This document shows, in pieces, positions 13,845 to 31,728 of a stretch of DNA of 64,000 nucleotides. The DNA is taken from the NCBI RefSeq assembly GCF_003991155.1, contig NZ_CP031293.1. One strand, written 5' to 3'. Source of the stretch: Escherichia coli. Lineage in GTDB: Bacteria; Pseudomonadota; Gammaproteobacteria; Enterobacterales; Enterobacteriaceae. A program made the position numbers and the translations under genes. The first letter of the stretch is position 1; every line of letters begins with the position of its first letter. Under the pieces are notes generated by a model, which saw nothing but the letters and a program-made list of their open reading frames with translations, was not told the DNA's origin and did not search any database.

Positions 13845-14567
13845 TCAGGCCAACTCGCAATAAAGGCAGCAACTATGCTTGAAGCCCCTTCCCCGCCGGA
13901 TAAATAATATCCTTACGGCAATTGGTAACCGTATAAAAGGCCTGATGTTTTGAACTGCCGTTGACGGAGATGAAGTAATCTGCTTTTTTGGCAGCATCCA
14001 ATAACGCATCAATGGCAACGCGATCATTGTTGAGCTCAATTCATAGCGCTGGATACAATTTCAATAAGGCGTCTTTACCACGTTGCGTGGCATTTTTGTA
14101 ATACTGTAAAACACCCGCTTTTTCCCGCGGAGATTCCGATACAACGGAGACGTTACGCTTGCTGGTATGGTTTCTGTCGGGAGGGTACTACCGATATCCT
14201 TACAAGCGTAGAGCTGTTCCATCATGCGTGCCAACAACAACATACGGATATCCAACCGTTCCCAGCGACGTAGGAACATCTCGCGAATGTTAATCCAGTA
14301 CTGTAGTCGGCGATCGCTATCACCAGATTCACAATCATAAAGAACCTCTGCAATATCAAGAGTATACTTGAGAATTTATGTCGATTCATTTTTCGTGCAC
14401 AACATTTCGATAGCTTCGAGGGCATCATGGTATTCTTTGTGACTGAAGGTCCATGAAAGTAACGTATCGAGAATAATCCCTGTAGTTGCCAAAATGAGTT
14501 GATCACTACACAATGATTTGTTTGTACAGAAGGAACGATTATTATATGTTCTTGTAGGGCAGAGCAC
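13845..14567 (-). pseudogene. stop/frameshift-interrupted remnant of an unidentified gene (four short minus-strand ORFs in different frames)
   Basis: Consecutive 63-94-aa minus-strand ORFs that overlap or abut in shifting frames; no intact start/RBS context; lies at the left edge of the island. Confidence 0.35.
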
Positions 14568-14684
14568 GTTGCTACCGTAACAGCGTTGAAGATAATTTGG
14601 CCGAGACTGTAGTGGCCCAGTTTAAAAGGTAGCAGAATTTTAAAAGTGTCAGGTGCATAGAATTAAAAAAATGGAACTATAAAA

Positions 14685-16418
14685 ATGGAAATCATATTAC
14701 CAAAAAACACCTTATATGACAGAGAGCAAAATGTCTTTTTTGAAAAGGTTACGGCCTTAATTGGCGAAAATGGTGCTGGTAAGTCCTCGATTTTACAATC
14801 CGTATTTATTAACTGTTTAACAAAAAAATATCTACCAGAAACAAAGGTTGTTTGTTTTTCTTCTGGACAAAATGAGAAATACTCAACGTACTTCTCTGAT
14901 TATCTTTCTCATGAAAGGCAAGCAAATAGAGGTCTTAACTTAGATTGTTGTTATTACGATAAATCATGGTCAAAGTTACTAATATTCATATCCACAATTT
15001 GTAAATCAAATGGTCTTGTTAGAAATTTTTTATGTGAGAAAGGCTATATTGATGTATCAGATGATAAAAATGATGATATATCAAGCAAGCTTACATTGAC
15101 GGTCCGAGTAAATTCGGCTTACGTTAATCGAGTAAAAATGGCATTAGCACAAGAAGAACAAGGTATTGAAAATACTTTAAGGTATTCAGCTTATCATAGG
15201 ACTTTAGAAAGTTTCATTAATAATATTGTTAATGCTGATTATGATTTCGAGTCTCCACTTGAAGCTCAAGAGATCTTGCTAACTCATTCAAATTTTTTCA
15301 ATCCATCATTTGAGGAAGCAGAAGATTCCTTTTTTGATCCTATCATAACATTTTTCACTCAAGCAGCAGATAATGATTACTTTATAATAAAACCATCATT
15401 ACAGCTAGAGTTTAAAAATAATATCGAACTGAATGATATTAGTGATGGGGAATATCAAGTACTCTTTTTATACTCTCTGCTTGATATTTTTGATAGTCCT
15501 AATACTTTATTCTTATTAGATGAGATAGATTCCCATTTACATTACAAGAATATTGAGCTCTTATGGCATCGACTACATAGTATTAATGGTTATGCGATAA
15601 CAACCACCCATCTATTAGACTCAATTACAGCTACTGATAATGATTTTAAAAACTTAAAGATTGTTGATAAAGGAAAAATAAAAGAAGATGATAAAATAAA
15701 AACTATAATAGAACGTTTATCTGTCTTGACAAGAATATCAGACGTACAGTTCGAAGTGTGTCGTAAACTAGAAAACATAGTATTGATGGATGATTATAAT
15801 GATTGGACTATTTTTTATGCCTTAGCAAAGAAAAAAGGACTTGATGTATCAAAGTTAGATGGCCTCCATGCAATAAAACAGTCCTCTGGTTACGATAATT
15901 TAAATCAAGAGTTCGCAAAACCAAAAATAGAGTGGATTAATTCGCTTTTAAATGTAAATACTGATAAAAAAGTCAAAAGAATATTCATGATCTGCGACAA
16001 AGATGAGGCTCCAATTACCTATCAGAAAGATGGAGTTCAAGTCAATGGAAGTGAATATTCAAAACATATAGCGAAGTTAGAAAATAAAAACAAAAATAAA
16101 ATATATCTCCTTGCATGGAAAAGAAGAGAAATAAAAAACTACTTACTATCTTATACGGCATTGTCCCATCATGGATTTATCGAGCAAATAAACAATGGAG
16201 ATCTGCCAGCTAACAGTTATTTAAAAGAAAACGATCCTGGAGATAATTCAGCAATTAGCCGGCTTAACGTAAAACATTGCATCACAAAAATAATTGATTC
16301 TGATGGTATAGGATTAGATATATCAAAACTTTACTCATATATAGAACTTATACCACCTGCTGAGATCAGTGAAGATATAGTGAACATGTACAATTTTTTG
16401 GTGGAGAAATTAAAATGA
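14685..16418 (+). CDS. ABC-type (OLD/AAA_21-like) P-loop ATPase, 577 aa, with possible C-terminal TOPRIM/DUF4435-like nuclease region
   Basis: Walker A LIGENGAGKSS, signature-like ISDGEYQ, Walker B LFLLDEIDSHLH; C-terminal acidic motifs FMICDKDE and WKRREIKNYLL; very AT-rich; stop overlaps next gene start (ATGA at 16415-16418). Confidence 0.7.
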   Translation: MEIILPKNTLYDREQNVFFEKVTALIGENGAGKSSILQSVFINCLTKKYLPETKVVCFSSGQNEKYSTYFSDYLSHERQANRGLNLDCCYYDKSWSKLLIFISTICKSNGLVRNFLCEKGYIDVSDDKNDDISSKLTLTVRVNSAYVNRVKMALAQEEQGIENTLRYSAYHRTLESFINNIVNADYDFESPLEAQEILLTHSNFFNPSFEEAEDSFFDPIITFFTQAADNDYFIIKPSLQLEFKNNIELNDISDGEYQVLFLYSLLDIFDSPNTLFLLDEIDSHLHYKNIELLWHRLHSINGYAITTTHLLDSITATDNDFKNLKIVDKGKIKEDDKIKTIIERLSVLTRISDVQFEVCRKLENIVLMDDYNDWTIFYALAKKKGLDVSKLDGLHAIKQSSGYDNLNQEFAKPKIEWINSLLNVNTDKKVKRIFMICDKDEAPITYQKDGVQVNGSEYSKHIAKLENKNKNKIYLLAWKRREIKNYLLSYTALSHHGFIEQINNGDLPANSYLKENDPGDNSAISRLNVKHCITKIIDSDGIGLDISKLYSYIELIPPAEISEDIVNMYNFLVEKLK

Positions 16419-18322
16419 ACACCTCTTTATTTGAAGATCTACTTACACTAATCAAGAAAAAGAGTTCGATAAGGAATACAGAACAAGCAGTAGAGTTAAT
16501 TTCATTATTTATTTTTTTACATTATATAAAATTATATCTTTATGAAAATGATAAAAGATTTTCAGATATAAAAAACATATCAAGCAACAACATTAATGAA
16601 ATTAAATATTATTATCAGCAACTATATGAAAGTTTTATTTTCTCGATAGATATAAAAAATATAAACCACGACATGCTTGAAAAGCTCAGGAGTAAGATAG
16701 GTTTTTTAATTAATAACATCAATGACCATGAAATAATTAAATATATAGATTATTCTATTTCGCAGATACATTCACTTACAGAATTCTATCAATATGCAAA
16801 TTCTTATCAATCTTTAATTCTTAGGATGGTTAATGAATCGGGTCGTTCAGGTGAATATGTTACTCCATCTGCTTTAGTTCAGCTCATGGTTGAAATGTTA
16901 TCACCTACAGATGGCACATCAATCTACGACCCCGCATGTGGAACTGGGGGTTTATTAATAGAGTCAGCACGATATATTAAAGGCAACAGTTTAAACAAAA
17001 ACTTAAATTTAAATTATTCCCTTATTGGTAATGACACATCATCATTTGCCTGTCTAATCTCAATTGTTAACCTTTTAATCAATAAAGAATTTAATTTTGA
17101 AATAATACTAAAAGATAGCTTAGATATAAATTATAAGAATACAAAATATGACTTTATTTTAACTAACCCACCATTTGGGAAAAAGAGCGGTTGGGATAAT
17201 ATTCATATTGACACACATTATAAAGGACCTAATCTAGACTATTACTTCCTGGAGCATGTTATTGACTCTCTCGCTGTTAATGGCAAAGCAGCCATAATAT
17301 TACCAGAGCGTTTTTTATATGATGTGAGTAAAGAGTGCATCACTCTTAAAGATAAGATCTTCCAAAATTATAATTTAGATTGTATTTTATCTATACCGTC
17401 AGGTGCATTGCTTCCTTACACTGCAGTAAAATTATGTATTCTTTTTATAAGTAATCCTGGCCCAACAGATAGAATATTTTTCTACAATTTAAATAATGGT
17501 GAAAAATACTCACGTACAAATATTATAAAATTCGATGATTTTATAGATTTTTTAGAGTCAGCAAAAAATAGAACAATAACTGAACACTCCTGGATTATCA
17601 ATATTAGTGATACACCTTCATCTTATAACTTACTCTTAAAAGATAAAGAGCGAAACTCATATGAGTTTCTTAGTGATTCTATAGTTAACATTGAACAGAC
17701 AATACGTAATAATGAATTATTACTAACAGAGTTGTCTTTATTAAGAGAAAAAATAGCAATCTTAGAGTCAACAATAAAAAATCATTCGCATGAATATGAA
17801 TTTGAGAGACTTAAAGTTGGAAATATTGCAATAGTAAAATCCGGAAATTTATTACAAAAAAACAGGCTGTTACCCACTGGACCAATTCCTGTATACGGTG
17901 GAAATGGAGTTATTGGATATAACAATGAGGCAATGGTAAATGGTGAAAATATTATTATTGGTAAGGTCGGAGCTCTTTGCGGAAACGTTCGGTATGTTCA
18001 AGGTGATATTTGGGTGACAAATAACTCATTAATTATTAAGAATTATTTACCAAATAAAGTTTTAACACCCTACCTTGCAAAGTTATTATCTACTTTAAAC
18101 TTAAGAAAGCTCGCCGTTGGTACCGCTCAACAATATTTAACCACAACACAAATAAAAAATGTAGAAATTAGCATTCCACCTTTAACGACCCAGCATAAAT
18201 TAAATATGTGGCTTGATGAGTTAGATAATACCCTTGAACAATATAATAAGCTCATTGAAAAAATAATGAATGATAAGCGAGAACTTAAAGAGAATTTGTA
18301 TAAAGGTCTTTTAATAGAATAG
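16415..18322 (+). CDS. N6-adenine DNA methyltransferase (HsdM-like) fused to a single type I specificity (HsdS-like) target-recognition domain, 635 aa
   Basis: Motif I YDPACGTGGLL and motif IV LTNPPFGKK; C-terminal ~180 aa resemble an HsdS TRD plus conserved helix (...GKVGALCGNVRYVQGDIWVTNNSLIIK...); translationally coupled to the upstream ATPase. Confidence 0.75.
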   Translation: MNTSLFEDLLTLIKKKSSIRNTEQAVELISLFIFLHYIKLYLYENDKRFSDIKNISSNNINEIKYYYQQLYESFIFSIDIKNINHDMLEKLRSKIGFLINNINDHEIIKYIDYSISQIHSLTEFYQYANSYQSLILRMVNESGRSGEYVTPSALVQLMVEMLSPTDGTSIYDPACGTGGLLIESARYIKGNSLNKNLNLNYSLIGNDTSSFACLISIVNLLINKEFNFEIILKDSLDINYKNTKYDFILTNPPFGKKSGWDNIHIDTHYKGPNLDYYFLEHVIDSLAVNGKAAIILPERFLYDVSKECITLKDKIFQNYNLDCILSIPSGALLPYTAVKLCILFISNPGPTDRIFFYNLNNGEKYSRTNIIKFDDFIDFLESAKNRTITEHSWIINISDTPSSYNLLLKDKERNSYEFLSDSIVNIEQTIRNNELLLTELSLLREKIAILESTIKNHSHEYEFERLKVGNIAIVKSGNLLQKNRLLPTGPIPVYGGNGVIGYNNEAMVNGENIIIGKVGALCGNVRYVQGDIWVTNNSLIIKNYLPNKVLTPYLAKLLSTLNLRKLAVGTAQQYLTTTQIKNVEISIPPLTTQHKLNMWLDELDNTLEQYNKLIEKIMNDKRELKENLYKGLLIE

Positions 18323-18330
18323 ATCACAAT

Positions 18331-18357
18331 AGCAGGGTGTCCATAAAACACCCTGCT
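18331..18357. terminator. hairpin between convergent genes (AGCAGGGTG-loop-CACCCTGCT), possible bidirectional terminator
   Basis: Perfect 9-bp stem seen in sequence between the + strand MTase gene and the - strand hsdR; no clear U-tract. Confidence 0.4.
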
Positions 18358-18402
18358 ACTGGTTGCAAGTAAGTTGCAATATCTGTACTGCTGAAGCTAC
18401 TA

Positions 18403-21400
18403 TTAATAATGCTCCTCAATATACCCATACGCCTTCTGGAACAACTCTTTATCTTTCCCTAGTCCAAACTGGGCCAAGGTCAGTAAAAGCGCCTTTTGGA
18501 TTTCGCGCGGGCCACTGTTGGAATTTTGCCAGCCATCAAAGCGGGTAGCTTTCACAATTTTATCAATTTGCTCTACAACATCACCGATTAACTTAGGGGT
18601 AGTTTCCGGACGTGTTTCGAGGAAAAGCTTAGTCAACGCCTGTTTATTATCAGCTTCAGTTACTGGGCGCTCGCCCGTTTCGCGCTCGGCTTGAACGGTA
18701 TCTTTCGCTGCATCCAACAGGCCTTTCAACCAGTCAATGGCCTTGATAACACCAGCTTCATAGTCCTGACGCAGTTTTTCAAGGCGCTCGCCCAATGCCA
18801 CAAATTTAGGATCATGACTGCCGCGCAAACGTCCCATAAGATCAATCTCCAGGCGTTTGGCACGTTGTTCCTGCTCTTTAGCGGTCAGGGTAAAAATAGC
18901 GTGCTCGTCCATAACCAACTCGTCAATATCATCGCGAATACGATTGATATCAGTATGCTCATGGATCATCTTGATTGTTTCGGGGCCAAGGGCAGCCCAA
19001 ACAAGCGCACCTGTCTGCCCTACCGGACGCACCGATTCATAAATTTGCGCCAGCCATTTATAGTCCTGACGATAAGAGGTCAAAAAAGGATCTGGGTTGA
19101 TAGCTGACCATAACTTGGATAACACACCAAAGCTGGCAGCGAATTCATCGCGTTTCTCGTTGGTCGGCAGGCATTCCTGCGCGGCCATAATACCTTCAAA
19201 ACCAGCTATGGACCGATCCACACCAGGGAAGAAGGACAAACATTTATTCAGTTGTAACGGCAATAGCTCTTTAAATGCCTCAATTCCCTCTACAACTCCT
19301 TCAATTTCTTCAGGGTTATAGGCCAGAGCGGTACGCAGATTTTCGAAAACGCCGAGGTAGTCGATAATTAATCCCATGTCCTTGCGTACAGTATCGGTTT
19401 CGTACAACCGGTTGGTTCGGCACATGGCCTGAAGAAGAGTATGATCGCGTAGAGGCTTATCGAGGTACATGCAGTAGCAAATCGGGGCATCAAAACCCGT
19501 AAGCAGCTTGGCGGTTACGATAATAAGCTGTAATGGATGTTCAGGATCTTTAAAGCATTCAATCAGATCCTTTTGCACCTGTTCTTCGGCATCAATGTGC
19601 TGCCAGCGTTCAAAATCGACTTGTTTGACTGGCAGCTCCAACTCATCATGCCATTTAAGCCAATCCTTGTTGAGCTTGTCTTTTTTGCCACCCTCTTCAA
19701 CTTTAACCGGAGCCTGGTCAACGTTCATAACCACTTCAACCGCATCAAAACCAAGCTTTTCACCGAGCAAATAATACATCTGCACACAGGCTTCGCGATC
19801 GTATACCACAACCATGCCTTTCATCTTTTTCGGCATAACATGGTTGGTAAAATGCTCAGCAATATCATTACTCACCGCAGCCATACGCCTAGGGGATTTC
19901 AGCATGATTGCCAGCTTGCCTGCACGCCTGGACAATGCTGCTTTTTCTTCTTCATCCAGGTTGTTTTCGGTAGCCAGTTGCTCGAACTCTTCATTGATGG
20001 CATCACGATCCACTCGGAGTTCAGCCAGCCGAGGTTCGAACTTCACCGGGTTAGTTGCGCCATCCCGGATCGACTGCTTATAGCTATAGCGGCTCATATA
20101 GCGACCTGGATCTTCTTCGGCACCGAACAATTTGAACGTATTACGATCAATGCCAGAAATCGGAGTACCAGTCAGGCCATAGAAGTGGGCATTGGGCAAC
20201 GCCCAGCGCATTTTCTCGCCTAATCCCCCTTCCTGTGTACGGTGAGCTTCGTCAACCAACACAATGATATTGTCCCGGTTGTTCAGGCCATTAGGGTTGC
20301 TATCGTCAATTTCGATATCTTTAAATTTAAAGATGGTGGTGATTAAAATGCCACGGCTGTCTTGTTCTATGTATTCACCCAACTTTTTGCAGCTTTGCAC
20401 TTTAATCAGATTCTTAACGTCGGCTCCGCCAAAGGTCTCGTTAATTTGGCTGTCCAGATCTCGCCGGTCCACAACGATAAGTACCGTCGGGTTTTTTAAC
20501 GCATTATCGGCACGTAGCATTTTGGCGGCGTAAAGCATCAACAAGGATTTACCCGATCCCTGGAAATGCCAAATAAGACCTTTTTTTGGATAGCCTCTGC
20601 GAACACGCTCAACAATTTGTTTTGCAGCTTCAAATTGCGGATAACGCGGCAGGATTTTAACGCGTTTAGGTGGAGTATTTTTGCCCGTTTTGACGGTTGA
20701 AAATAATGCAAAAGATTCAAGTAACTGCAATAAGGTTTGTGGATTTAACAAACTCTCACAGCTGTTGAGTACCGATGCTAATCCCGGCAGAATTTCATCA
20801 CGAAGCTCAGTATTATGCCAGGGCCCCCAGTCTTTAACTCTGGCATTAATGGCACCATAGGCAAAGGTTTTTCCTTCGCTGGCAAAGCACAGCAAGTTAG
20901 GTACAAAGAAAGATTCAACATTTTTCCAGTAGTACTTTTTGCCACCCATGAAATCGGCAGCACCGTCTTGCCAGGTCACGCTGGGGCGTGTTGCGGTTTT
21001 AACTTCGCCCACTACTAGCGGTATGCCGTTCACATAAAGAACAATATCAAAATAGACTTCAGTGGCCGCGATATAGCGAACCTGCTGCGCCACCACAAAG
21101 TGGTTGTTCTCTATATTGTCAAAATCAATCAGATTGATGGTGATATGGTCGCCATTCTTACCAAAAGGCAAGGTTTTGTCGGCCATCAACCATTCCTGGA
21201 AGTTTTCATTGGCCTTTACCAAGCCGGTATGGCGGGCTTCTAAAACCACTCCTCGCAGTTTGTAAATGACCTCATCGGCATAGTCAGGCTGTCTGCCGAT
21301 ATCAGGGTTTAACGAACAAAGCGCGTCTTTTAGCCACTCATCAACGAAGATATCCTGCGCTTGTTTAGGCAGGTTTTCACCGTGGCAGTAAGTCCACTTG

Positions 21401-21465
21401 ACTCCGCTTAAACCTTTTAAACGGTCGATAATTCCATTTTCTGTGACGGTTTGTTCGTTAAACAA
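18403..21465 (-). CDS. hsdR: type I restriction enzyme R subunit (HsdR), 1020 aa
   Basis: N-terminal PD-(D/E)xK-like DIVLYVNGIPLVVGEVK; helicase motif I HFQGSGKS and DEAH box IVLVDEAHRTQ; directly follows hsdS. Confidence 0.9.
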   Translation of the reverse strand: MFNEQTVTENGIIDRLKGLSGVKWTYCHGENLPKQAQDIFVDEWLKDALCSLNPDIGRQPDYADEVIYKLRGVVLEARHTGLVKANENFQEWLMADKTLPFGKNGDHITINLIDFDNIENNHFVVAQQVRYIAATEVYFDIVLYVNGIPLVVGEVKTATRPSVTWQDGAADFMGGKKYYWKNVESFFVPNLLCFASEGKTFAYGAINARVKDWGPWHNTELRDEILPGLASVLNSCESLLNPQTLLQLLESFALFSTVKTGKNTPPKRVKILPRYPQFEAAKQIVERVRRGYPKKGLIWHFQGSGKSLLMLYAAKMLRADNALKNPTVLIVVDRRDLDSQINETFGGADVKNLIKVQSCKKLGEYIEQDSRGILITTIFKFKDIEIDDSNPNGLNNRDNIIVLVDEAHRTQEGGLGEKMRWALPNAHFYGLTGTPISGIDRNTFKLFGAEEDPGRYMSRYSYKQSIRDGATNPVKFEPRLAELRVDRDAINEEFEQLATENNLDEEEKAALSRRAGKLAIMLKSPRRMAAVSNDIAEHFTNHVMPKKMKGMVVVYDREACVQMYYLLGEKLGFDAVEVVMNVDQAPVKVEEGGKKDKLNKDWLKWHDELELPVKQVDFERWQHIDAEEQVQKDLIECFKDPEHPLQLIIVTAKLLTGFDAPICYCMYLDKPLRDHTLLQAMCRTNRLYETDTVRKDMGLIIDYLGVFENLRTALAYNPEEIEGVVEGIEAFKELLPLQLNKCLSFFPGVDRSIAGFEGIMAAQECLPTNEKRDEFAASFGVLSKLWSAINPDPFLTSYRQDYKWLAQIYESVRPVGQTGALVWAALGPETIKMIHEHTDINRIRDDIDELVMDEHAIFTLTAKEQEQRAKRLEIDLMGRLRGSHDPKFVALGERLEKLRQDYEAGVIKAIDWLKGLLDAAKDTVQAERETGERPVTEADNKQALTKLFLETRPETTPKLIGDVVEQIDKIVKATRFDGWQNSNSGPREIQKALLLTLAQFGLGKDKELFQKAYGYIEEHY

Positions 21466-21466
21466 T

Positions 21467-22633
21467 TTATTGTCCCCTCAGAAGAATATTCAAATAACTG
21501 GACTTGAGTTTACGAATTTTTTGAAGCCTTGATTTAGCTTCTCTATAACTGTTTTCGGCTAAATGTAATATATCCTTATATTTCCCAAGCTCTCTTGATG
21601 GTGGTATAACCATCTTCTGAGAATGTACATCGGCATCATTAACAGCCGGGAAACTTGTACCAACTGCCAAATTGGTTAATGAATAAGTGAATTGCTTCGA
21701 CAAAGTGAAATAATAAATAAAATCGGACAAATCATTTTTTGCCCTTAGAACAGTAAAACCTGTTGATGCTATTGAATCATTCAATATTTCAGACACATAA
21801 AACGTAGCTCTATGATTGGGTCTAACAGTGCTAACAACAATATCTTTTTCCTTAAGAATACGCCGAGCTCGGCTGGGGGCTTCAGCGAAATGGTATTCTT
21901 TAGGAGTATCGACAAAACCAGGAAAAGTCACTGAAGATATATCTATATACCTAATCAGCTTATTTTTATTGGCATCATTACTTAACAAGTCAAAATTAAT
22001 ATTTGATACATCCTTCAATCTAACTTTGTTATATCCAAATGGCAGTTTTTCTTTTCGATCAAATGTAGTCAACCGATCAATTAATCTTTGAAATAAATTT
22101 AATGCAGACCTTTCAGTCTCATTTGCACAATGTAATACTTGTTCGATTTTTTTTAAAGAATTTAAAAAATCAACTTGCAGATCCATTTCAGGAATAATAA
22201 ATTCCTGCTGACTTAAAACTTTCCATTTTATCGTTGGAGACAATGACCCCTCCGAAATTGCTACTGCACGATTCATGAAAGTATCAGACTGCATAATAAA
22301 GGGTAAAAACTCAGGTATTACAGTATTTGAATTTGCCTCCAGAACCATGGCATGAGCCGAACAGATACAATCCCAATCTGCTACCGCGACTTTACGTTGA
22401 TAAGCACGACGCTTACCAAAAATAATCTGGCCTTTTTTCACTAAAAGCTTCTGCCCTTCAACGTCACTGGGTGTACCATGACGTTTGATTTTCAGGCTGT
22501 CAGGGTCTAAATGCTCCAAACCGACATAAATTTCAAGGTCTGTCTCGCTCGGTTCCACTCGTTTAGAGATATGTTTAGCGATATCGCCAAACTTCACCAT
22601 TTGCCAGCCTTCAGGTAATTGCTGTTCTGTCAT
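21467..22633 (-). CDS. hsdS: type I restriction-modification specificity subunit (HsdS), two TRDs
   Basis: 388-aa protein with two variable regions separated by conserved spacer; second TRD coding region markedly AT-rich; abuts hsdM and hsdR. Confidence 0.85.
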   Translation of the reverse strand: MTEQQLPEGWQMVKFGDIAKHISKRVEPSETDLEIYVGLEHLDPDSLKIKRHGTPSDVEGQKLLVKKGQIIFGKRRAYQRKVAVADWDCICSAHAMVLEANSNTVIPEFLPFIMQSDTFMNRAVAISEGSLSPTIKWKVLSQQEFIIPEMDLQVDFLNSLKKIEQVLHCANETERSALNLFQRLIDRLTTFDRKEKLPFGYNKVRLKDVSNINFDLLSNDANKNKLIRYIDISSVTFPGFVDTPKEYHFAEAPSRARRILKEKDIVVSTVRPNHRATFYVSEILNDSIASTGFTVLRAKNDLSDFIYYFTLSKQFTYSLTNLAVGTSFPAVNDADVHSQKMVIPPSRELGKYKDILHLAENSYREAKSRLQKIRKLKSSYLNILLRGQ

Positions 22634-24133
22634 TTACTGCTCCACCTTGCTTTCAACGTTATATCCAAGCTCTGCAAGGCTCTGGAATAATTTATTAGTT
22701 TGCTTTTTCAACTGAGTACGGCTTACTTTCCACGCTTCAATCGCATGTTCAATATTATGTACTTCAGCGTTGTTTTGTGCTTGCACATACAGTGGAATTG
22801 AAAGGTTATAAAGGTTTTCTTTAATAGCTTCAATATTCACTAAAGAGGTTATATCGTTTTTTTTCTCCGGATTAAAATAAGCCTCGCATAATACCTCCAA
22901 ATCCTCATCGGATAAGCGACTATGAGCGCGTTCACGGGTAACATGCTCAACCCCGTTGATAAATAACACTTTATTTTTGCGTTCGGCAGGTTTATTGCAA
23001 TTAAGCACCACCACACAAGATTCCATCGGCGAGTTATAAAACAGATTTGGTCCCAAACCAATCACCGCTTCAATAATGTCCGATTCAATCACCTGTTTAC
23101 GAATGGCCTGCTCAGAATCACGGAACAGCACACCGTGTGGCCAGAGCATAGCAGCACGACCGGTATCGGGTTTTAAACTTTTAATTATATGGGTATAAAA
23201 AGCATAATCAGCGCAGCCCTGCGGTGGGACACCATAAAGATTTCGACCATACGGATCAGCAGCAAACTTGTCACGATTCCATTTTTTAATGGAGTACGGT
23301 GGGTTGGCAAAAATCACATCAAACTGCTTGAGCCGATCGTTTTCAATAAACTTTGGCTCAGCCAAAGTATCACCACGCAGCACATCAAACTCTTCAATAT
23401 CGTGCAGGAACATATTCATACGGGCGATTGCGGATGTCAGCAGGTTCACTTCCTGACCATAAAGGTGCACAGAGCGCCACTCTTCCCCTCTAGCACGCAG
23501 ATCCATCACTGCATTTAGCAACATCCCACCTGTGCCACACGTTGGATCATAGGCGGTTTCACCCGGTTTTAAGCCCATAATGCGCGTCATTAAATGCACG
23601 ACTGTTCGGTTGGTGTAGAACTCTGCTGCCGTATGACCGGAATCATCAGCGAACTTTTTAATCAGGTATTCGTAGGCCTCACCAAGATCATCCTGAGCGA
23701 CAGATTTAATGCCTAGCGGAATTTGACTGAAATGTTCAATCAGATCAGCCAGCAGATGATCGGGCAGGCGCTCTTTATTGGTCCACTGCGCATCACCGAA
23801 GACGCCATGTAAACGCGGATTATTGGCTTCAATTAGTCGAAGCGCATTCTGGATCGCTTCACCAATGTTTTTACTGGTATTGCGTACCTTTTCCCAACTG
23901 GCTTCAGAGGGAATGTTGAAACGGTGAAACATCGGCATGGCGGCATATTCAGCATCACCTTCATGGAGTTCCAGCGCTTCGTTATATTCTTCCAGATAGA
24001 CATCTGACAGGCGTTTGTAAAACAGCAACGGGAAGATATACTGCTTGTAGTCTGATGCGTCAATTTGGCCACGAAGAAATTCGGCGGCTCCCCAGAGCAG
24101 CTCTTCCAGCTTTTTATTACTCATAGTACTCAT
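22634..24133 (-). CDS. hsdM: type I N6-adenine methyltransferase subunit, paralogue B (499 aa)
   Basis: Motif I YDPTCGTGGMLL, motif IV FANPPYSIKKW; start overlaps stop of upstream hsdM paralogue (24130-24133). Confidence 0.85.
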   Translation of the reverse strand: MSTMSNKKLEELLWGAAEFLRGQIDASDYKQYIFPLLFYKRLSDVYLEEYNEALELHEGDAEYAAMPMFHRFNIPSEASWEKVRNTSKNIGEAIQNALRLIEANNPRLHGVFGDAQWTNKERLPDHLLADLIEHFSQIPLGIKSVAQDDLGEAYEYLIKKFADDSGHTAAEFYTNRTVVHLMTRIMGLKPGETAYDPTCGTGGMLLNAVMDLRARGEEWRSVHLYGQEVNLLTSAIARMNMFLHDIEEFDVLRGDTLAEPKFIENDRLKQFDVIFANPPYSIKKWNRDKFAADPYGRNLYGVPPQGCADYAFYTHIIKSLKPDTGRAAMLWPHGVLFRDSEQAIRKQVIESDIIEAVIGLGPNLFYNSPMESCVVVLNCNKPAERKNKVLFINGVEHVTRERAHSRLSDEDLEVLCEAYFNPEKKNDITSLVNIEAIKENLYNLSIPLYVQAQNNAEVHNIEHAIEAWKVSRTQLKKQTNKLFQSLAELGYNVESKVEQ

Positions 24134-25629
24134 ACCTCGAAACCTTCTTTGATAAGCAGGGCCTCCAGCTCCTCTTCTGCTTTTTCCAGCTCAGCCAGCT
24201 TCCGTTGAAAATCTTTGAGCGCCTCTTCCACAGTGATGGTTTCTTCTTCGAGTGGCTTTTGCACATAACGAGCAATATTTAGATTGAAGTCATTTTCTTC
24301 AATCTCCTTCAGAGAAACCCAGCGTGCAACGCCTTCGATTTCTTTTGCATCTGGCCCTTGTTGCGCCTGGTCATGATAGATTTGGTATATTTCATCGGCC
24401 TGCTTGTTGGACAGCGTATTCTGCGCACGTCCCTTGGTATAGATTTCTTCAGCATTGATGATCAATACATGATCTTTATGCGCGGCCGGACGTGATTTAC
24501 GCAGCACCAAAATACACGCAGGAATCCCAGTCCCATAGAACAGGTTGGAAGCAACACCAATAATCGCCACAATGCGATTCTCTTGCAGTAATTTGGTTCG
24601 AATTGCCCCCTCTGCGCCGCCACGAAACAGCACACCATGAGGTAATACGACTGCCATACGTCCATTGTCGTTAAGTGAAGCAAACATATGCTGCACCCAG
24701 GCAAAATCACCATTTGTTTTAGGCGCCAGGCCATATTGCTTACGGCCATAGGGATCGTTCGACCACAGATCGTATCCCCATTCTTTTAAGCTAAATGGTG
24801 GGTTGGCAACAACGCAGTCAAAGGTTTCTAAACGATCGCTTTTTAAAAATTTAGGTTCGCGTAAAGTATCCCCTCGGACAATATCGAAATCTTCCTGTCC
24901 ATGCAGGAACAGATTCATACGCGCAATAGCTTCCGTCGTTAAGTTCTTTTCCTGACCCTTGATTTTTAGTAAACGCGGATCACCACCATTTTCTTTTACA
25001 TGGTGGATGGTCTCAAGCAGCATACCACCGGTACCACAGGCGGGATCGTAGACACTCTCACCGGCTTTTGGATCAAGAATGTTAACCATCAAACGAACGA
25101 TAGTTCGTGGGGTATAGAACTCACCGGCTTTCTTATTGGCTTTGTCTGCAAAGCGTTTGATCAGATACTCGTATGCGCGCCCCATATCATCGTCACGGAC
25201 ACTAGAAACGCCAAGGTTCACCTTATTGAAGTGATTGAGTAACGTAGCCAGTAACTCATCAGAAAGGCGTTCTTTATTGGTCCAGCTGGCATCGCCAAAA
25301 ATGCCATGCAGTTTAGGGTTTGCCAGTTCTATACCACGGAAGGACTCTTTTAAAGCCTGACCGATGTCCTTGGTCTCAGCGAAAACATCGCGCCAGTGGC
25401 AATTTTCAGGTATCTGAATACGGTGAAACATCTTGCCCTTGGCAAGCTCTGCATCCCCAATGCTCTCCATCGCATCGGCAAATTCTTCGTCATACACGTC
25501 ACAAATGCGCTTGAAGAACAGGATGGGGAAAATGTACGTTTTGTAATCTGACGCATCAATGGGCCCTGTAATAATATGGGCTGCATGCCATAGATGGGCC
25601 TCGAGATCTTTTAGGTTAATCAGTGTCAT
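24130..25629 (-). CDS. hsdM: type I N6-adenine methyltransferase subunit, paralogue A (500 aa)
   Basis: ORF 24130..25731 trimmed to MTLINLKDLEAHLW; motif I YDPACGTGGMLL, motif IV VANPPFSLKEW; homologous over full length to paralogue B. Confidence 0.85.
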   Translation of the reverse strand: MTLINLKDLEAHLWHAAHIITGPIDASDYKTYIFPILFFKRICDVYDEEFADAMESIGDAELAKGKMFHRIQIPENCHWRDVFAETKDIGQALKESFRGIELANPKLHGIFGDASWTNKERLSDELLATLLNHFNKVNLGVSSVRDDDMGRAYEYLIKRFADKANKKAGEFYTPRTIVRLMVNILDPKAGESVYDPACGTGGMLLETIHHVKENGGDPRLLKIKGQEKNLTTEAIARMNLFLHGQEDFDIVRGDTLREPKFLKSDRLETFDCVVANPPFSLKEWGYDLWSNDPYGRKQYGLAPKTNGDFAWVQHMFASLNDNGRMAVVLPHGVLFRGGAEGAIRTKLLQENRIVAIIGVASNLFYGTGIPACILVLRKSRPAAHKDHVLIINAEEIYTKGRAQNTLSNKQADEIYQIYHDQAQQGPDAKEIEGVARWVSLKEIEENDFNLNIARYVQKPLEEETITVEEALKDFQRKLAELEKAEEELEALLIKEGFEV

Positions 25630-25872: not shown

Positions 25873-26910
25873 TTGGCGCAAAATGGCGGCATTTCCTCAT
25901 TTCTCCATCGGAGCATCTTACGCGCTATAACCACTCTCGTTTTTTCCTATTCCCATGCAGATGAAGCACTACGCAATGAACTTGAGAAGCATCTCTCCCC
26001 GCTGAAGCGAACCGGGAAGATCACAACATGGCACGATCGCCGCATCGTTCCTGGTCAGGAGTTCGAACGTCAGATCGACCACTATTTTTCGCAAGCAGAT
26101 ATCATCCTGATCCTGATCAGCAGTGACTTTATTGCTTCTGATTACTGCTATCAGGTAGAGATGAAAAACGCACTGGAACGGCATAACCGGGGCGAGGCAG
26201 TGGTCATTCCGGTAATTTTAAGAGACTGTGCATGGCATCAGTTAGAATTCGGCAGCATTATGGCGGCGACTATCGACGGTAAACCCATCACTAAGTTTGC
26301 CACCCACGATGAAGGCTACGTTCAGGTCGTCGAGGCTGTCTCGCGTGCCATTGCCCGGATGGAAGCCAAAAAACCACAGCAAACCATACATATCCCTTCA
26401 CCGGCTCCGGCGAATCCGATCTTTCAGGGAGTAGATTCCGTTTTTACACCGCGTTCAAGCAACCTTACTCTACCCAAGAAATTTACCGATCTGGATAAAG
26501 ATCGTGCCAGACGTGAGGGCTTTGAATATGTTGCCCGCTATTTTGAAAATTCGTTAGATGAACTCAAAAAGCGCCACCCCGGATTAGATATCGATTTTAA
26601 TCGGCTTGATACAGATTCATTCACCTGTGCCGTGTATATCAATGGCAGTAAGGTCGGCCAATGTGGCATCTGGCGAGGCAATCAACATCATGGAATGGGA
26701 GATATCTGTTATAGCCAGGATAATGTTGTTCGAAACAGTATTAACGAAACTCTAAGCCTTGCTGATAACGGCCAGACTCTTGGTTTTCGTGCTCTGATGG
26801 GAGGCTTCAGTCGAGGAACTTCACGAGACGAACTATTGACCAATGAAGGTATGTCGGAACATCTCTGGGAAATGTTCTTCGGGCTAATCAAGCAAAGAAT
26901 GTCCCGATAA
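25873..26910 (+). CDS. TIR-domain protein with uncharacterised ~180-aa C-terminal domain
   Basis: TIR-like N-terminus (VFSYSHADE..., WHDRRIVPGQEF, ADIILILISSDFIASDYCYQVEM with a Glu at the expected catalytic position); only in-frame start is TTG at 25873 and no clear Shine-Dalgarno, so the N-terminus is uncertain. Confidence 0.65.
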   Translation: MAQNGGISSFLHRSILRAITTLVFSYSHADEALRNELEKHLSPLKRTGKITTWHDRRIVPGQEFERQIDHYFSQADIILILISSDFIASDYCYQVEMKNALERHNRGEAVVIPVILRDCAWHQLEFGSIMAATIDGKPITKFATHDEGYVQVVEAVSRAIARMEAKKPQQTIHIPSPAPANPIFQGVDSVFTPRSSNLTLPKKFTDLDKDRARREGFEYVARYFENSLDELKKRHPGLDIDFNRLDTDSFTCAVYINGSKVGQCGIWRGNQHHGMGDICYSQDNVVRNSINETLSLADNGQTLGFRALMGGFSRGTSRDELLTNEGMSEHLWEMFFGLIKQRMSR

Positions 26911-27094: not shown

Positions 27095-28150
27095 TCATGC
27101 TGGCAAATACGTTTTCTTAAGCGGCACCAATAGCTTAGTCTCTATATCCACTTGCTCATAGTTTTCAACTAACGCGCGTACCAAATCATCCAGCGTCCAT
27201 AGCGTCAACGGGATTGTAGAACGATCGGCCTCATAACGCGCATCCTTGCTGAATCCGCCGGTACTGACATACAGCCCGCGATCGTCTTTATGGCGGCCAC
27301 CGATAAAGCTACGGATTTGCTGGCTGCTCATCTGTTCCCGCCGGTGCTTCACCTCAACAATAATGCGCGGATTTTCAAACCCAAATCCGTCAGGCGAAGC
27401 AATGATGTCTTTCCCACGGTCAGCACCCGCAGGCGATACCTGAGTTTTATATCCCATGCTGCGTAACACGCCAGCGACCAGATTCTGCATCTCATCCCAG
27501 TCGAGACGGTTGATACGATCCTTGATGCCTTCAAAAGCGATCATTTCCATGTCGCGCAGAGGATTAGAAACGACCTCATCCTCTTCACCTGAAACAGGTA
27601 CTTCCGGCACGATATCTGAGACAGGCTTATTGCCCTGCACTAATTCATTCACAGCAAAATCAGGCACCTGAAAAACTGTCAGCGTTGAACCAAGGGTGTT
27701 TCTAGTTGCATCACTCAGACTATCGCGCTTAATCTCTTCCGCATTCCACTTCACTTTACGGGCGATGCCCATGCCATCTTCAAGCCACTCGGCATGAAAC
27801 TCAAAATCTGACGCTATTTTCCCTATTAAATAGGTCCGATTAGAAGGTGAATAAGTGATAGCCCAGTCGCCTTTCTGCATTTCATTCACAAAGCGCCAGA
27901 CCTGAGAAGCTCCAGAACGAACTGTGCCTGGCTTAGTCTGTGGCTCAAGCTCCTGATACCGGGTAAACAACTGCTCTCTTGAGCATCCAGGTTTCACATA
28001 GGGAGCGAGCTGCGACCAACCAATTGCAACAACCTGTTTGTCTCTGAAGTCGTCGTACAATTTTCCGCCATCACCGCGGATCATCCACATCTTAGTCGCC
28101 ACAATAATTCCTTCTGAAAATACTTCATCGTTATACCGGGACGTGATCAT
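27095..28150 (-). CDS. Mrr-family (PD-(D/E)xK) restriction endonuclease with N-terminal PUA/EVE-like putative modified-base reader; probable type IV enzyme
   Basis: C-terminal domain alignable with E. coli Mrr catalytic region (DIIASPDGFG...IIVEVKHRR...LYVSTGGFS); start set at ATG 28150 preceded by AAGGTGG; N-terminal RFVNEMQKGDWAITYS resembles EVE-domain core. Confidence 0.7.
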   Translation of the reverse strand: MITSRYNDEVFSEGIIVATKMWMIRGDGGKLYDDFRDKQVVAIGWSQLAPYVKPGCSREQLFTRYQELEPQTKPGTVRSGASQVWRFVNEMQKGDWAITYSPSNRTYLIGKIASDFEFHAEWLEDGMGIARKVKWNAEEIKRDSLSDATRNTLGSTLTVFQVPDFAVNELVQGNKPVSDIVPEVPVSGEEDEVVSNPLRDMEMIAFEGIKDRINRLDWDEMQNLVAGVLRSMGYKTQVSPAGADRGKDIIASPDGFGFENPRIIVEVKHRREQMSSQQIRSFIGGRHKDDRGLYVSTGGFSKDARYEADRSTIPLTLWTLDDLVRALVENYEQVDIETKLLVPLKKTYLPA

Positions 28151-28212: not shown

Positions 28213-31200
28213 CTAAACCTGACGCCTATCAAGACTATTATAAATAGCCTCAATCTCACCTTTCAGGTTATCACCAGAGTAAACCATCGATGTATCGTAT
28301 CGTTCATATCGCGCTTCCCGTGTCGCACTAAACCAGTTGAACGATCCCACGCATAGCAAACCATCATCACCAATAACAATTTTGCTATGAACACGGTTTA
28401 CCAGCTTTGTAGCAATACCCAGCGCATTCAGTTTCTCCAGCGCCGCTTTAAGGTTCTGCTGCTTCTCTTTTCGCTTCTCAAAATCTTTATGTTCAGTGTT
28501 GTAGCTTCTGTCAGTGACTATCGTGACGTTAATACCACGTGAACACGCCGCAATCATGGAATCAAGAAAACCCGTTTGCTCCAGCTTTTGCCAGGTCAGC
28601 CATGGAGAAACTATCGTGATGTGTTTATCGGTATTTTCAAACGTCTGATTCAGGAAGTTATCATGCTGCTCCACACCATGAAGTGTGTAGATTTTGGTCT
28701 CGGAAGTTTTTAAATCCTTACGCTCTTTATAATCAAAAGAGAGCGCATTCTTCTCGAACTCAAAGAGATATTTTGCCAGCAATCCTCGCGGAGATGAGGG
28801 AGCCTGGATCTCAAACAGATCCATATCGCCGAAGACCAGGAAGCTATCCTTCGCACGGGAGACTGCAACATTCAGCATGCTGTTATCGCTATCAATAAAC
28901 CCGCCGTCTTCATGTTTTGAATAGACTGGCGAGAATATAACAATCGCTCTTTCCGCTCCCTGAAGAGAGTGCACGGTGCCCACTGTGAGCGACTTTTCAT
29001 TCGCGCCCGTACTGATACCTTGTTTACCCAGCGCCTGTTTTATAGTGGATACCTGCGCGCTAAAAGGCGTCACGATACCGACAACTTCATGAAGCGATTT
29101 GCCGTAATGCGCTTCAATATTTTGCTGGTTCTCTGCCAACCAGGCCGCTATCGTTTCAGCCTCAAGCAAATTATATCTACTTCCACTACTTGCCTGCTCT
29201 CCTTTACCATCAATATGGAGATAACCCATTGCGGGCATTAAATTGCTCTCTTCACGCCCTCTTTTAGGCAACAACTTACCGTGATAGCAGAGCGTATTAC
29301 AGTATCCAATAATATTATCGAAGCACCGGCGGTGTTCATATAGGTACATACCACGAGCCAGTTCGGGATCATATTGATAGCGCGAAGCAAACTGCGCTAT
29401 TTTCATAACGCTGCCAGATGCGGCACTTTTACCAAGGTCTGCGATTGCCGTATATTTCTCGGTAATCTCTTCTTGCGTACTGCCAGACAGAATTTTTTCC
29501 GCCAGCATGTTACCGACATCAATCGCGGGAGCAATACTCCATATTGGCGGGATCTGCTCCGTATCGCCAATCACTAATGCCTTCTTAGCTAATGCAAACG
29601 AGGCAGCAGCCACTTCAGGAAGCACCTGCCCGGCTTCATCGACAATGAGTAAATCGGCAAAATCATACAAATAACTTTTCTCGAATTTACGTTGTCCTTT
29701 GTGCTCACTTATCTGCATATTGCCGGGCAGCATATAGCATGTCATCACCACACATGGAGTGAGTTTCATTCGACGTTGCCAACGGGCGGTTACCCCTTTA
29801 GCGCCTTGTTTCTTCTTCTCTTCCTGCAGATCATCAATTCTGGCCATATCCATCAGCCAACGACCTTCCCAGTAGTGAGTCGTCAGTAAAAATGCAGGGA
29901 AGCGAATCTGCGTATCAGCCAGTTCATCGGCCTGTGAGAAGCTCAGTTCCTCGTCGCCCTCATACCCTAAATCAAATGCCAGCCTCTGCCACTCCTGAAC
30001 CGCCTGCTGTTCTTTAAGAACGATTTCATGGGCGGAGTCAATCTGCTGCCGGTATGTTGTTTGCTCGCGCTCAGCGGAATTGAGCAGCCCATCAATATTA
30101 CGTTCGATAGTTTCAGGATCAGACCACTGATTTCCTGCAATCAGCGCGCCTAATTTATCTTCGAGAAACAGCTGTATTTGGTACTGTCGCTTATTGCGAA
30201 CCGCCGGGAGCCAGGAAAATAATGAATAGATCAGTGATTCACCGGCGCGATATTTTTTCCATTCCGTTTTAGCACTCTTCAGTAGAGTGACTTTTTGTTC
30301 TTGTCCGGAAAGTAATTTATTTAAATTATCGAGATATTGCTCAATATCATTAGCAATAAGCTCACGCGCAGCCCGAATCTGGCTTAACATTTGCCATGTT
30401 GCGTTCAGTCTTATCAGTTGCTCGGATTTTGCTGCCAACTGACCATGCAGGAGTTCAATGATCTTTTCAGGGGATGAACACTCTTTTTCAGGAAAGGCTG
30501 CCTTAGCCTTCTCCAGATAAAACAGCAGTGCATCCTCTACATACTCTTTTGACTCAACCTGGGTGAAGAAATCTTCAGTTTGATATTTTTTGGCTGCCTC
30601 AGCTTTACGAGTGCTTGAGGGAAAATAAGCGCCGAAGCTTTTCAGCTCTGGCAACCATCGTCCGGCCATCGCACCTGAACCTTGCGAAAAGTCTTTCCCG
30701 AATGCCTCAATAATGTTCGTTACAGCCTGGTTATTCGTTGAAGTCGCGATAATAACCGGAGGCTCAGATTTTTCGAGAGCTGCTCTGGCCCACTGCGTGG
30801 CGATGATAGAAAGCACCAGCGTGGTTTTTCCGGTTCCCGGAGGTCCATTAACAGCAAGGATATCGCCATGTCTTGCATCCAGAAAATGGCTTAAGGCATC
30901 GCGCTGAGCCTTTGCCAGCGGAAACTTATCTCCGGAGTGTCCAAGCCTGTCGCTGAATTTTGCTCCTGGGGCCAGCAAAGACTCTGCAGCATGAACCTCT
31001 CGCGAGGCGAAGCGATTGAAGAGCGGCACATCCTTCTTGCAAACAAGCAGGTGATCATAAAGAGAAAGGATATGGAAACTGGCACCGCCAGATTGCGCCG
31101 TTTTAACAATATAACCGTGCTCAGCGAGTACATATTGCTCAGGATTTTTAATCCAGTCGCCGGCAACATTCTTCAGCAGCCTCTCTGAATCATCCAGATA

Positions 31201-31728
31201 TTGACGCCACTCCTGCTGCAAGGCTGCATATCGTGCTTCCCGTTCTTCATCCGTTTCGGCAGTCTTATCAATGCTGTCATCAAAGTTGATAGAGAACGAG
31301 GTATGGATTGTCTTGTATTTGTCATACTGCCCAATATCACCAATCGAAAATGCTCCTTTTGGCAAAGGTTCAAGCAGGTCTCTGGGAATGGAGGTCGCTG
31401 GCGTCGGATATAAAAAACCCTCACGGCTTAGCAAGGCTGGCGTCACTAGCGGGGTAACAATATCAGGTGCGCCTGCGGAACGGTCCTTACCATGCTGCAG
31501 TAACCGAAAATAAACTTTTGGGCGCAAGACGACATCGACCGTTTCGACATCGTCTTTTTCTCCCTCAAAAAATTTACTGACAATCGCTTCGTCAAGACGT
31601 CCCGCCGCTATCCCATGCCAGTGAGTGAAATTTTTGGCGTCTTTCCGTTCAAAACTGCCCTTTCCTGACTCAGCATCTGCAAGCGAGTTGCGCCAGTATG
31701 AGGCAAACCCTAAAGCATTTTCATCCAT
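28213..31728 (-). CDS. SF1 (Upf1/DNA2-like) helicase fused to C-terminal PLD-family nuclease, 1171 aa; architecture resembles type II Mokosh
   Basis: Walker [13 protein letters not shown], Walker [10 protein letters not shown], helicase motifs [16 protein letters not shown] and [12 protein letters not shown]-terminal HKD motif [20 protein letters not shown]. Confidence 0.75.

Follow-up and report, generated by a model that had tools for sequence, protein, structure and literature searches.

A translationally coupled OLD-like ATPase and fused Type I methyltransferase-specificity protein in an Escherichia coli defence island: a candidate guard or bait module

A stretch of 64,000 nucleotides from the Escherichia coli chromosome (NCBI RefSeq assembly GCF_003991155.1, contig NZ_CP031293.1; hereafter the window) carries two overlapping genes on the + strand, which raise the question whether an ATPase with a possible nuclease domain takes the place of a restriction subunit beside a DNA methyltransferase, or whether the two proteins act together in another way. 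Gene 1 (14685-16418) encodes an ATPase-Toprim protein of 577 amino acids (aa), annotated in RefSeq as a coding sequence (CDS) for an 'AAA family ATPase'. Gene 2 (16415-18322; 635 aa; RefSeq CDS 'N-6 DNA methylase') encodes an HsdM-type methyltransferase fused to a single target-recognition domain (TRD), here termed the methyltransferase-specificity (M-S) fusion. A first-pass annotation, made from the sequence alone, had proposed this pair as a restriction-modification (R-M)-like module in a non-canonical and probably undescribed arrangement. The pair is indeed a real, translationally coupled and unusual unit, but replacement of HsdR by the ATPase is not supported as proposed there, given the loss of a catalytic motif in one clade of the fusions and the conservation of their TRD. 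A guard or bait module accounts better for the evidence than a new restriction enzyme does.

The boundaries of both genes in RefSeq are identical to those of the open reading frames (ORFs). The start of gene 2 overlaps the stop of gene 1 in an ATGA (16415-16418, + strand) and is preceded, 8 nt upstream, by a GGAG Shine-Dalgarno sequence (16403-16406). The GC content is 0.30 over 15-18 kb of the window, compared with 0.41-0.48 in the flanks. The ORFs, RefSeq and the GC content agree with the initial description of two + strand genes with an ATGA overlap in an AT-rich block, and all motifs cited in that description were located in the translations. In the chromosome, fim and nan genes are followed by a variable island and then tRNA-Leu, and the pair lies just after nanS, where it opens a dense defence island.

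The pair was found in 102 of 5,426 complete E. coli genomes, each time on the chromosome. Besides E. coli, the hosts of this ATPase/M-S cassette include Salmonella, Enterobacter, Klebsiella, Acinetobacter and Vibrio, and the pair is kept as a unit across Enterobacterales, Vibrio, Acinetobacter, Pseudoalteromonas, Snodgrassella, Cellvibrio and Psychrobacter. The ATPase and methyltransferase genes overlap or abut in every related locus examined. Such conservation across these genera shows that the arrangement is not due to chance. Among the phage genomes searched no homologue was found, and a search of plasmids gave four matches only, of which the one inspected was a form embedded in a Type IB operon (see below). 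In E. coli CUVET16-465 (NZ_CP150994.1, 4125233-4129232) the matched segment is shorter than the query by a single base, and in place of the fusion the annotation gives an HsdM-family methyltransferase and an S subunit as separate genes. Either a natural frameshift has split the fusion in this strain or the assembly contains an error.

To place these observations in a wider context, 37 loci were surveyed, taken from a collection of genomes at species level and from additional contigs. An HsdM-type methyltransferase gene adjoins the ATPase-Toprim gene in 37/37 loci, and no member of the ATPase family without a methyltransferase neighbour was identified among the loci examined. This adjacency spans three deeply diverged clades, down to ∼30% identity in the C-terminal domain (CTD) of the ATPase. 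Even distant members (P0213, P0215 and the longer P0139) are encoded beside hsdM, and members whose CTDs are 28-38% identical to that of the window lie next to hsdM in Type IB operons as well. It has to be considered whether the two genes are merely unrelated neighbours, a solitary OLD-like abortive-infection protein next to an orphan or regulatory methyltransferase. Class 1 OLD proteins do act alone, and the locus lies in a dense defence island in which a ThsB-like TIR protein, PDC-S02, MkoC and an HNH nuclease are encoded as well; nevertheless, with overlapping or abutting genes in every locus of three such distant clades, this explanation is highly improbable. The first-pass annotation had offered, as a simpler alternative, that the fusion shares the convergent hsdR and that the ATPase is unrelated to it; the constant adjacency of ATPase and methyltransferase leaves this poorly supported.

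What kind of enzyme does gene 1 encode? By architecture it is an OLD-family enzyme, with an ABC ATPase head and a C-terminal Toprim-like domain. On the protein, Pfam AAA_21/SMC_N matches cover aa 13-301 only. The Walker A motif or P-loop GENGAGKSS (aa 27-35; 14763-14789, + strand, as are all gene 1 motifs) follows the pattern GxNGxGKS found in all three clades. The ABC signature-like sequence ISDGEYQ (aa 252-258; 15438-15458) occurs as SDGE(Y/F)Q in 37/37 ATPases compared, and within the Walker B/D-loop segment LFLLDEIDSHLH (aa 275-286; 15507-15542) the motif DExDSHLH is invariant in all clades.

The CTD (aa 326-577; 15660-16415) is predicted to consist of a Toprim-like core and a helical subdomain. 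It is not recognised by Pfam or any other sequence profile, and DUF4435/AriB profiles matched neither this domain nor that of 20 relatives. The AlphaFold (AF2) model of the full-length ATPase has a predicted local distance difference test score (pLDDT) of 87, and when it was compared with the PDB using Foldseek, GajA, the Thermus OLD protein (TsOLD) and retron Eco8 were the top matches. The CTD alone gave weak matches, with fold-level similarity to the AriB-type Toprim. Judged from this model, the C-terminal ∼250 aa probably form a Toprim-like domain of the OLD/AriB type. Thus, from the initial suggestion of a TOPRIM/DUF4435-type C-terminus, the Toprim-like fold is retained in the predicted structure, while the DUF4435 assignment is not borne out by the profile.

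The conserved residues of the CTD are consistent with this assignment. The first acidic Toprim motif, D369-D-Y-N-D373 (within VLMDDYNDW; 15789-15803), was placed by motif mapping only; in a set of 66 diverse members of the family D373, W374 and F377 are invariant and residue 369 is either D or E, and the D369...D373 spacing agrees with E377...D381 of TsOLD. In the DxD motif D438-K-D440 (15996-16004; ICDKDE, aa 436-441) both aspartates are invariant in all alignments and correspond by order to the OLD metal-A ligands D431/D433. The RREIKNYLL motif (aa 480-488, with EIKNYLL at aa 482-488; 16122-16148) was recognised by its conservation: W478, R480, R481, E482, K484 and Y486 are invariant among close relatives, and the consensus is RREIENYLL in the wider family and EIKNYL in the subfamily of the window. 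In TsOLD the ligands are E377/D431/D433 and D381/S478/E480, with R487 as basic residue. The order and spacing of D369...D373, D438xD440, E482 and K530 fit the metal-A and metal-B ligands and the basic residue of TsOLD and BpOLD, an assignment based on mapping of motifs.

The CTD family is a small one: at 50% identity, 1.84 billion proteins yielded 121 representatives. The domain is mostly C-terminal in proteins of ∼565-750 aa; the remainder are shorter records, probably fragments. Proteins of 731-747 aa (P0129, P0133, P0139, P0146, P0158 and P0168) represent a variant with an extra N-terminal domain of ∼165 aa, which has the sequence features IKWIKNIKRD...WAYFD...LHWP.... In the one context of this variant that was seen (L058, 8001-10226), it is located in a Type IB operon after a GmrSD_N gene.

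Gene 1 was also compared with the profiles of known defence systems. Its best match in PADLOC was AriA (53 bits, E = 1e-14, aa 22-297). The AriAB profile matched the ATPase with 1e-6; within the CTD its only match was to the EIENYL motif of a relative (E = 0.02). A further match, to mad3 (2e-13), was partial. The profiles of PARIS, Gabija, Septu, HEC and PDC in PADLOC gave only weak matches to the ATPase domain, and PrrC, RloC and AAA_13 were not matched in Pfam, NCBIfam or PADLOC. Membership of TIGR04435 ('restriction system-associated AAA ATPase') was rejected, as the NCBIfam match was fragmentary and scored 34 bits against a cut-off of 300.

Gene 2 encodes a single-chain relic of the Type I methyltransferase core, with an HsdM-like catalytic domain, one TRD and flanking helices. 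Pfam identified N6_Mtase at aa 131-399 (9e-42) and one Methylase_S at aa 462-617, in agreement with the fusion of an HsdM-type methyltransferase to a single TRD that had been recognised at first pass; PADLOC identified MTase_I (5e-63) and Specificity_I (9e-28). Both the S-adenosylmethionine-binding motif I (YDPACGTGGLL, aa 171-181; 16925-16957, + strand) and the catalytic motif IV (NPPFGKK, aa 251-257; 17165-17185, + strand) are present, the latter intact here and in clade A1. The Type I TRD (17798-18265, + strand) is flanked by long helices (aa ∼425-465 and 595-635). The fusion also gave a partial match to mad2 (2e-28) and a weak one to MAD5, but membership of the MADS family was rejected, as the NCBIfam MAD2 match scored 59 bits against a cut-off of 720.

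About 57 full-length relatives of the fusion, of 618-649 aa, were collected. The HsdM_N domain (PF12161) was detected by Pfam neither in the M-S fusion nor in these ∼57 relatives; as a control, all canonical HsdM proteins in the same table have HsdM_N but one, a short record of 421 aa. The catalytic domain of the fusion is 24-29% identical to every neighbouring HsdM. The TRD is the best-conserved region of the M-S proteins, with a mean pairwise identity of 0.48 compared to 0.41 for the catalytic domain and 0.21-0.23 for the N-terminal region, the linker and the C-terminal helix. In real Type I relatives, used as a control, HsdM has an identity of 0.87 and the HsdS TRDs of ∼0.2-0.3. The same pattern was observed between closely related loci: between E. 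coli strains HsdR is 100% and the neighbouring HsdS only 30-32% identical (swapped specificity), whereas the M-S fusion is 97% and its TRD 96% identical; in Salmonella the values are 98% for HsdR, 32% for HsdS, 89% for the ATPase and 79% for M-S. A TRD copied from the HsdS next door was considered and rejected, as the M-S TRD has no significant similarity to the HsdS of the window.

The question whether the fusion acts by methylation could be addressed by comparing clades. Three clades, B, A1 and A2, are resolved in the ATPase tree. DPACGT(G/S)G and NPPFG(K/R) are kept in all eight fusions of A1, to which that of the window belongs, whereas in six of six A2 fusions motif I reads DPAMGTG(G/R) and SG[VI]PFGK is found instead of NPPFGK. 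The pattern (N/D/S)PP(F/Y/W/H) was sought along all six A2 fusions, and none was found. The Asn/Asp of motif IV is essential in amino-methyltransferases and, as it is missing, the A2 M-S proteins are predicted to be catalytically dead. The ATPase and Toprim motifs of their partners are intact. The A2 cassettes are those of loci L036-L039, L042 and L045, of which L042 (Psychrobacter) stands alone among housekeeping genes. With one clade devoid of the catalytic motif, methylation-based self-protection cannot be the general mechanism of the family.

These results bear directly on the possibility of a new R-M type, in which an (M-S)2 dimer would methylate a fixed, probably symmetric bipartite site and direct the OLD-type nuclease, which replaces HsdR, to unmethylated DNA. 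Motifs I and IV are intact in 8/8 A1 fusions, the translational coupling fits co-assembly in fixed proportions, three stand-alone loci are without hsdR, and MADS, whose mad2 and mad3 are partially matched by the pair, shows that methylation-based defence can use non-HsdR machinery. On the other hand, A2 lacks motif IV yet has active-looking nucleases, and the stand-alone Psychrobacter case would be suicidal. The TRD is not diversifying, unlike the HsdS of the sister operons and that next door, 80% of the loci are beside complete Type I systems, and a functional HsdR nuclease is already available to the related form that is built into Type IB operons. A new R-M type is therefore considered unlikely. 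That only the A1 pair is a self-contained R-M system of a new type, of which the A2 cassette with its dead methyltransferase would be a derived sensor version, is equally unlikely; if true, it would be the first OLD-family nuclease to serve as restriction subunit of an R-M system.

Where do the cassettes reside? In the arrangement of the window, termed architecture A, the ATPase gene is followed by the M-S fusion. At 12 of 15 independent evaluable loci of this architecture the cassette lies next to a complete Type I system, in most cases immediately behind hsdR, and at seven loci 0-22 nt separate hsdR from the ATPase gene. No hsdR was found within 10 kb at three loci, in Psychrobacter, Pseudoalteromonas shioyasakiensis and Cellvibrio. 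Co-occurrence with a canonical hsdR, which the first-pass annotation had named as evidence against its restriction-like module, is thus the prevailing situation, and all other relatives examined lie within Type IB operons. At least four families are represented among the neighbouring HsdRs, with <30% identity between those that were compared pairwise. The HsdRs of Vibrio pacinii and Vibrio AND4 are 99% identical and are accompanied by cassettes from A1 and A2, respectively; the cassette has thus been swapped while the backbone stayed the same.

The cassette and hsdR are convergent in E. coli, Salmonella and Enterobacter, where a conserved leader of its own precedes the cassette. Alignment between these three hosts showed that the ∼190 nt directly upstream of the ATPase gene (14495-14684, + strand), probably a leader or promoter region, align well; the sequence further upstream does not, so that within the gap of roughly 860 nt between nanS and the ATPase gene only the ∼190 nt nearest to the ATPase are conserved. 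An Rfam search of the leader gave nothing above chance, and in a promoter scan promoter-like sites were not above the shuffled expectation. Between the convergent genes for M-S and HsdR lie 80 nt, which contain a 9-bp perfect inverted repeat, AGCAGGGTG...CACCCTGCT (18331-18359), and a terminator-like site was called there on the minus strand (18369-18352). This repeat is possibly a bidirectional terminator shared by M-S and hsdR.

The position next to hsdR could suggest that the cassette is an auxiliary subunit of the neighbouring Type I enzyme, which either degrades DNA after a single Type I cut or provides a second specificity that shares HsdR. The cassette directly abuts or overlaps the hsdR stop codon in several hosts, among them Vibrio and Snodgrassella, and does so in every Type IB operon. 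Furthermore, OLD enzymes are 5'-3' exonucleases in vitro and an engineered EcoKI M-S fusion works with HsdR. However, Type I families are defined by the absence of cross-complementation, so that one M-S lineage is unlikely to serve all of the at least four HsdR families found next to it. The low identity of the M domain to the neighbouring HsdMs, the undetectable HsdM_N domain, the three loci without hsdR, the occurrence of the same Type I system without the cassette and, in the three enterobacterial hosts, the convergent orientation and the cassette's own leader all speak against this possibility, including the shared hsdR proposed at first pass. On these family grounds a partnership of M-S with an HsdR seems unlikely, and an auxiliary role as a whole has a small probability.

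In architecture B (∼24 loci), the gene order is HTH-hsdR-ATPase-hsdM-hsdS, where HTH denotes a helix-turn-helix gene, and all genes abut. The HsdR belongs to the EcoAI (Type IB) family and its D...EAK nuclease motif is invariant. Between loci HsdM has 87% mean identity, while the HsdS TRDs are ∼20-30% identical. As the HsdR motif is kept and the HsdS TRDs vary, these operons are functional R-M systems in which an additional gene is positioned as PrrC is. A Toprim domain that replaces a lost HsdR nuclease could be ruled out for the embedded form, since D...EAK is invariant in those HsdRs. Architecture B was found on the conjugative Shewanella plasmid pS22302, and also on islands beside mnmG/gidB with mobI, DUF927 and rhuM, which resemble trmE islands of the MGIVchHai6 type. 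The gene that follows hsdS is variable. Often it encodes a protein of 672 aa without NCBIfam match, followed by RhuM (L005, 13524-15542), and on pS22302 it encodes a SIR2-family protein (L048, 13566-14708).

A further possibility is that the pair is a DNA-reading nuclease to which its own methylation is irrelevant, similar to modification-dependent Type IV systems: the TRD and the methyltransferase-like pocket would read a fixed foreign feature, for instance a modified base or a site specific to phages, and recruit the Toprim domain. The conserved TRD together with the degenerate catalytic pocket in A2 would suit such a role, as would the co-occurrence of the cassette with McrBC, Mrr-like and GmrSD-like genes and the variant ATPase with its extra N-terminal domain. 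But no known reader domain was detected, and the relatives in working Type IB operons with variable HsdS are left unexplained, which makes a DNA-reading nuclease very unlikely.

An ordinary R-M role for the fusion is disfavoured by the dead A2 clade, the conserved TRD, the missing HsdM_N domain and the exchange of cassettes. Domain architecture, motif conservation, synteny, TRD conservation and the loss of motif IV in A2 were seen directly. By analogy with PrrC, Ronin and PARIS, it is tentatively proposed, with a confidence somewhat short of even, that the pair forms a portable abortive-infection module whose M-S protein either restrains the nuclease or acts as its sensor. The cassette would be derived from Type I restriction systems. 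The M-S protein may dimerise via the helices that flank its TRD and form an (M-S)2 clamp like the M2S1 core of Type I enzymes; co-produced with the ATPase-nuclease, it would bind the nuclease and keep it latent. A phage anti-Type I factor, either an inhibitor of the Stp kind or a DNA mimic like Ocr or ArdA, might then occupy or distort this core, by which the ATPase-nuclease would be released or switched on. Cleavage of tRNA, as by AriB, or of DNA, as by OLD and GajA, would finally stop growth of the infected cell. In architecture B the resident HsdM and HsdS might serve as regulator and sensor, as EcoprrI does for PrrC, and in architecture A the nuclease would carry its own dedicated bait, as in Ronin. 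With a dedicated bait, the cassette could be located after any Type I system or occur on its own. The M-S protein of the window, whose motifs are intact, may still methylate DNA, but this would not be the point of the system.

Several points weigh against this reading. Whether the nuclease is competent is uncertain, judging from the motif, as the subfamily of the window has a lysine where the usual EIENYL has a glutamate. Motifs I and IV are kept in 8/8 A1 fusions, which indicates that catalysis or base flipping is still under selection in this clade. The conservation of the TRD could simply mean that there is one fixed DNA target, and the adjacency to hsdR could reflect a shared operon or an insertion hotspot and not function. 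Lastly, we infer the complex, its trigger, the substrate of the nuclease and the abortive outcome from analogy to other systems.

The Type I system next to the pair serves as context only. ORFs and RefSeq identified a complete system hsdM-hsdM-hsdS-hsdR on the minus strand (18403-25629), which consists of hsdR (18403-21465), convergent with the M-S gene, hsdS (21467-22633), an hsdM next to hsdS (22634-24133) and a distal hsdM (24130-25629), both of 499 aa in RefSeq. In both tandem HsdM paralogues motif I and NPP(Y/F) are intact. The same gene order was also observed in Salmonella, Enterobacter and several Vibrio. The hsdS-proximal HsdM varies with HsdS (80-94% identity), while the distal HsdM and HsdR stay at 98-100%. 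To our knowledge, no Type I family with two M genes is known. Between E. coli and Vibrio (the window, L011 and L037) HsdR and both HsdMs are 86-90% identical, compared to 46-59% for the ATPase and 34-42% for M-S. As the former values are far higher than the distance between the hosts suggests, the Type I module probably moved recently between E. coli and Vibrio.

The island continues with genes for a ThsB-like TIR protein (25927-26907, + strand; PADLOC 1.6e-153), with no ThsA nearby, and, on the minus strand, for a PDC-S02 Mrr-like nuclease (27095-28084), MkoC of Mokosh type II (28213-31725; 1682 bits) and an HNH nuclease (32500-33276), after which the island ends at tRNA-Leu. In Salmonella, too, the Type I system is followed by the TIR gene, which in some E. 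coli strains is truncated.

If the proposed role holds, the family would add an OLD class that has a Type I methyltransferase core as its obligate partner. Its three forms, a nuclease in a working Type IB operon, a cassette with a catalytic fused M-S and a cassette with a pseudo-enzyme, constitute a series that makes the guarding of restriction systems, so far represented by PrrC, Ronin and the Ocr-sensing PARIS, testable. The embedded form is present on a conjugative plasmid and on islands similar to the trmE genomic islands mobilised by IncC, and these carry resistance genes as well. With ∼2% of complete E. coli genomes and other hosts carrying the pair, and with mobile carriage of the embedded form, the family may matter for phage therapy and for plasmid transfer that depends on anti-restriction.

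How does the pair relate to the known systems? In the literature searched, no description of the family or of its accession numbers was found; a mention in the ABC-ATPase classification of Krishnan et al., 2020, is possible. The family is probably undescribed and combines an OLD/PARIS-like effector with the logic of guarding a Type I system. Type I R-M systems have an HsdM-type gamma-class N6-adenine methyltransferase, whose motifs I and IV are present in the pair. They differ from it by a separate, variable HsdS with two TRDs, where the pair has one fused and conserved TRD, and by a dedicated HsdR composed of a superfamily 2 (SF2) translocase and a PD-ExK nuclease, which is absent from the pair; the hsdR next door is part of a complete system that has an hsdS and two hsdM genes of its own. 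A single polypeptide that unites HsdM with a specificity domain is also found in the engineered 'Type IMS' EcoKI and in the M-S part of Type ISP, IIB and IIG enzymes. Compared with these fused enzymes, the pair is without a dedicated HsdR, its partner is OLD-like, its TRD is non-diversifying and one clade is predicted to be dead. In MADS (mad1-8), too, a single locus encodes a methyltransferase and an ATPase together with a specificity element, but the mandatory mad6, mad7 and mad8 are not among the genes of the pair's locus.

Members of the OLD family (P2 Old/TsOLD, GajA, Eco8 and Cran1) have the same N-terminal ABC ATPase and C-terminal Toprim on one chain as gene 1, which shares their acidic E/D...D, DxD and E pattern and a conserved basic residue, although its CTD has no sequence match to the OLD classes at the profile level. 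These classes are distinguished by gene context: class 1 is solo, class 2 is associated with the UvrD-like GajB, class 3 with a retron reverse transcriptase (RT) and non-coding RNA (ncRNA), class 4 is the split AriA/AriB and class 5 has an archaeal membrane partner. None of them has a methyltransferase partner, and the context of gene 1, with its HsdM-type partner, fits none. HEC-04, which requires both its active sites, is likewise a fused ATPase-Toprim embedded in another defence system. PARIS, OLD 'class 4', is built from the same two enzymatic modules, the AriA ABC ATPase and the AriB DUF4435 Toprim, which form a single chain in gene 1; fused AriAB variants exist as well. It is triggered by the anti-restriction protein Ocr, which is sensed directly, and acts by abortive infection in which AriB cleaves tRNA. 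Unlike the pair, PARIS is without a methyltransferase partner, and the CTD of the pair matches neither DUF4435 nor another Pfam profile.

In placement, the closest parallels are the anticodon nuclease PrrC, in the Type IC system EcoprrI, and RloC. Both represent an ABC-ATPase-headed nuclease in a Type I hsd operon, and the embedded relatives are placed equivalently; the pair is also located within or beside a Type I hsd locus. The R-M enzyme holds PrrC in a latent state until a phage anti-restriction factor sets PrrC free. Its nuclease domain is not a Toprim, in contrast to the Toprim-like CTD of gene 1, and PrrC uses the resident enzyme, whereas the form of the window brings its own fused M-S partner. 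In this last respect the pair resembles, by analogy, Ronin (ronA, hsdS and hsdM; 'decoy immunity', Silas et al., 2023, preprint), in which a Type I M/S core without its own HsdR is likewise tightly linked to an effector, which in Ronin is toxic. In Ronin, the HsdMS decoy holds RonA and the trigger was shown experimentally, methyltransferase catalysis is dispensable, and the upstream non-coding region is reported to be required for activity. Ronin is found beside R-M or BREX systems or in genomes without Type I systems. Its effector RonA is a membrane protein of 61 aa, and no small ronA-like gene is annotated in RefSeq beside the pair, where the linked gene encodes the 577-aa ATPase-Toprim. HsdM and HsdS of Ronin are encoded by separate genes typical of Type I systems, while in the pair both are fused on one chain.

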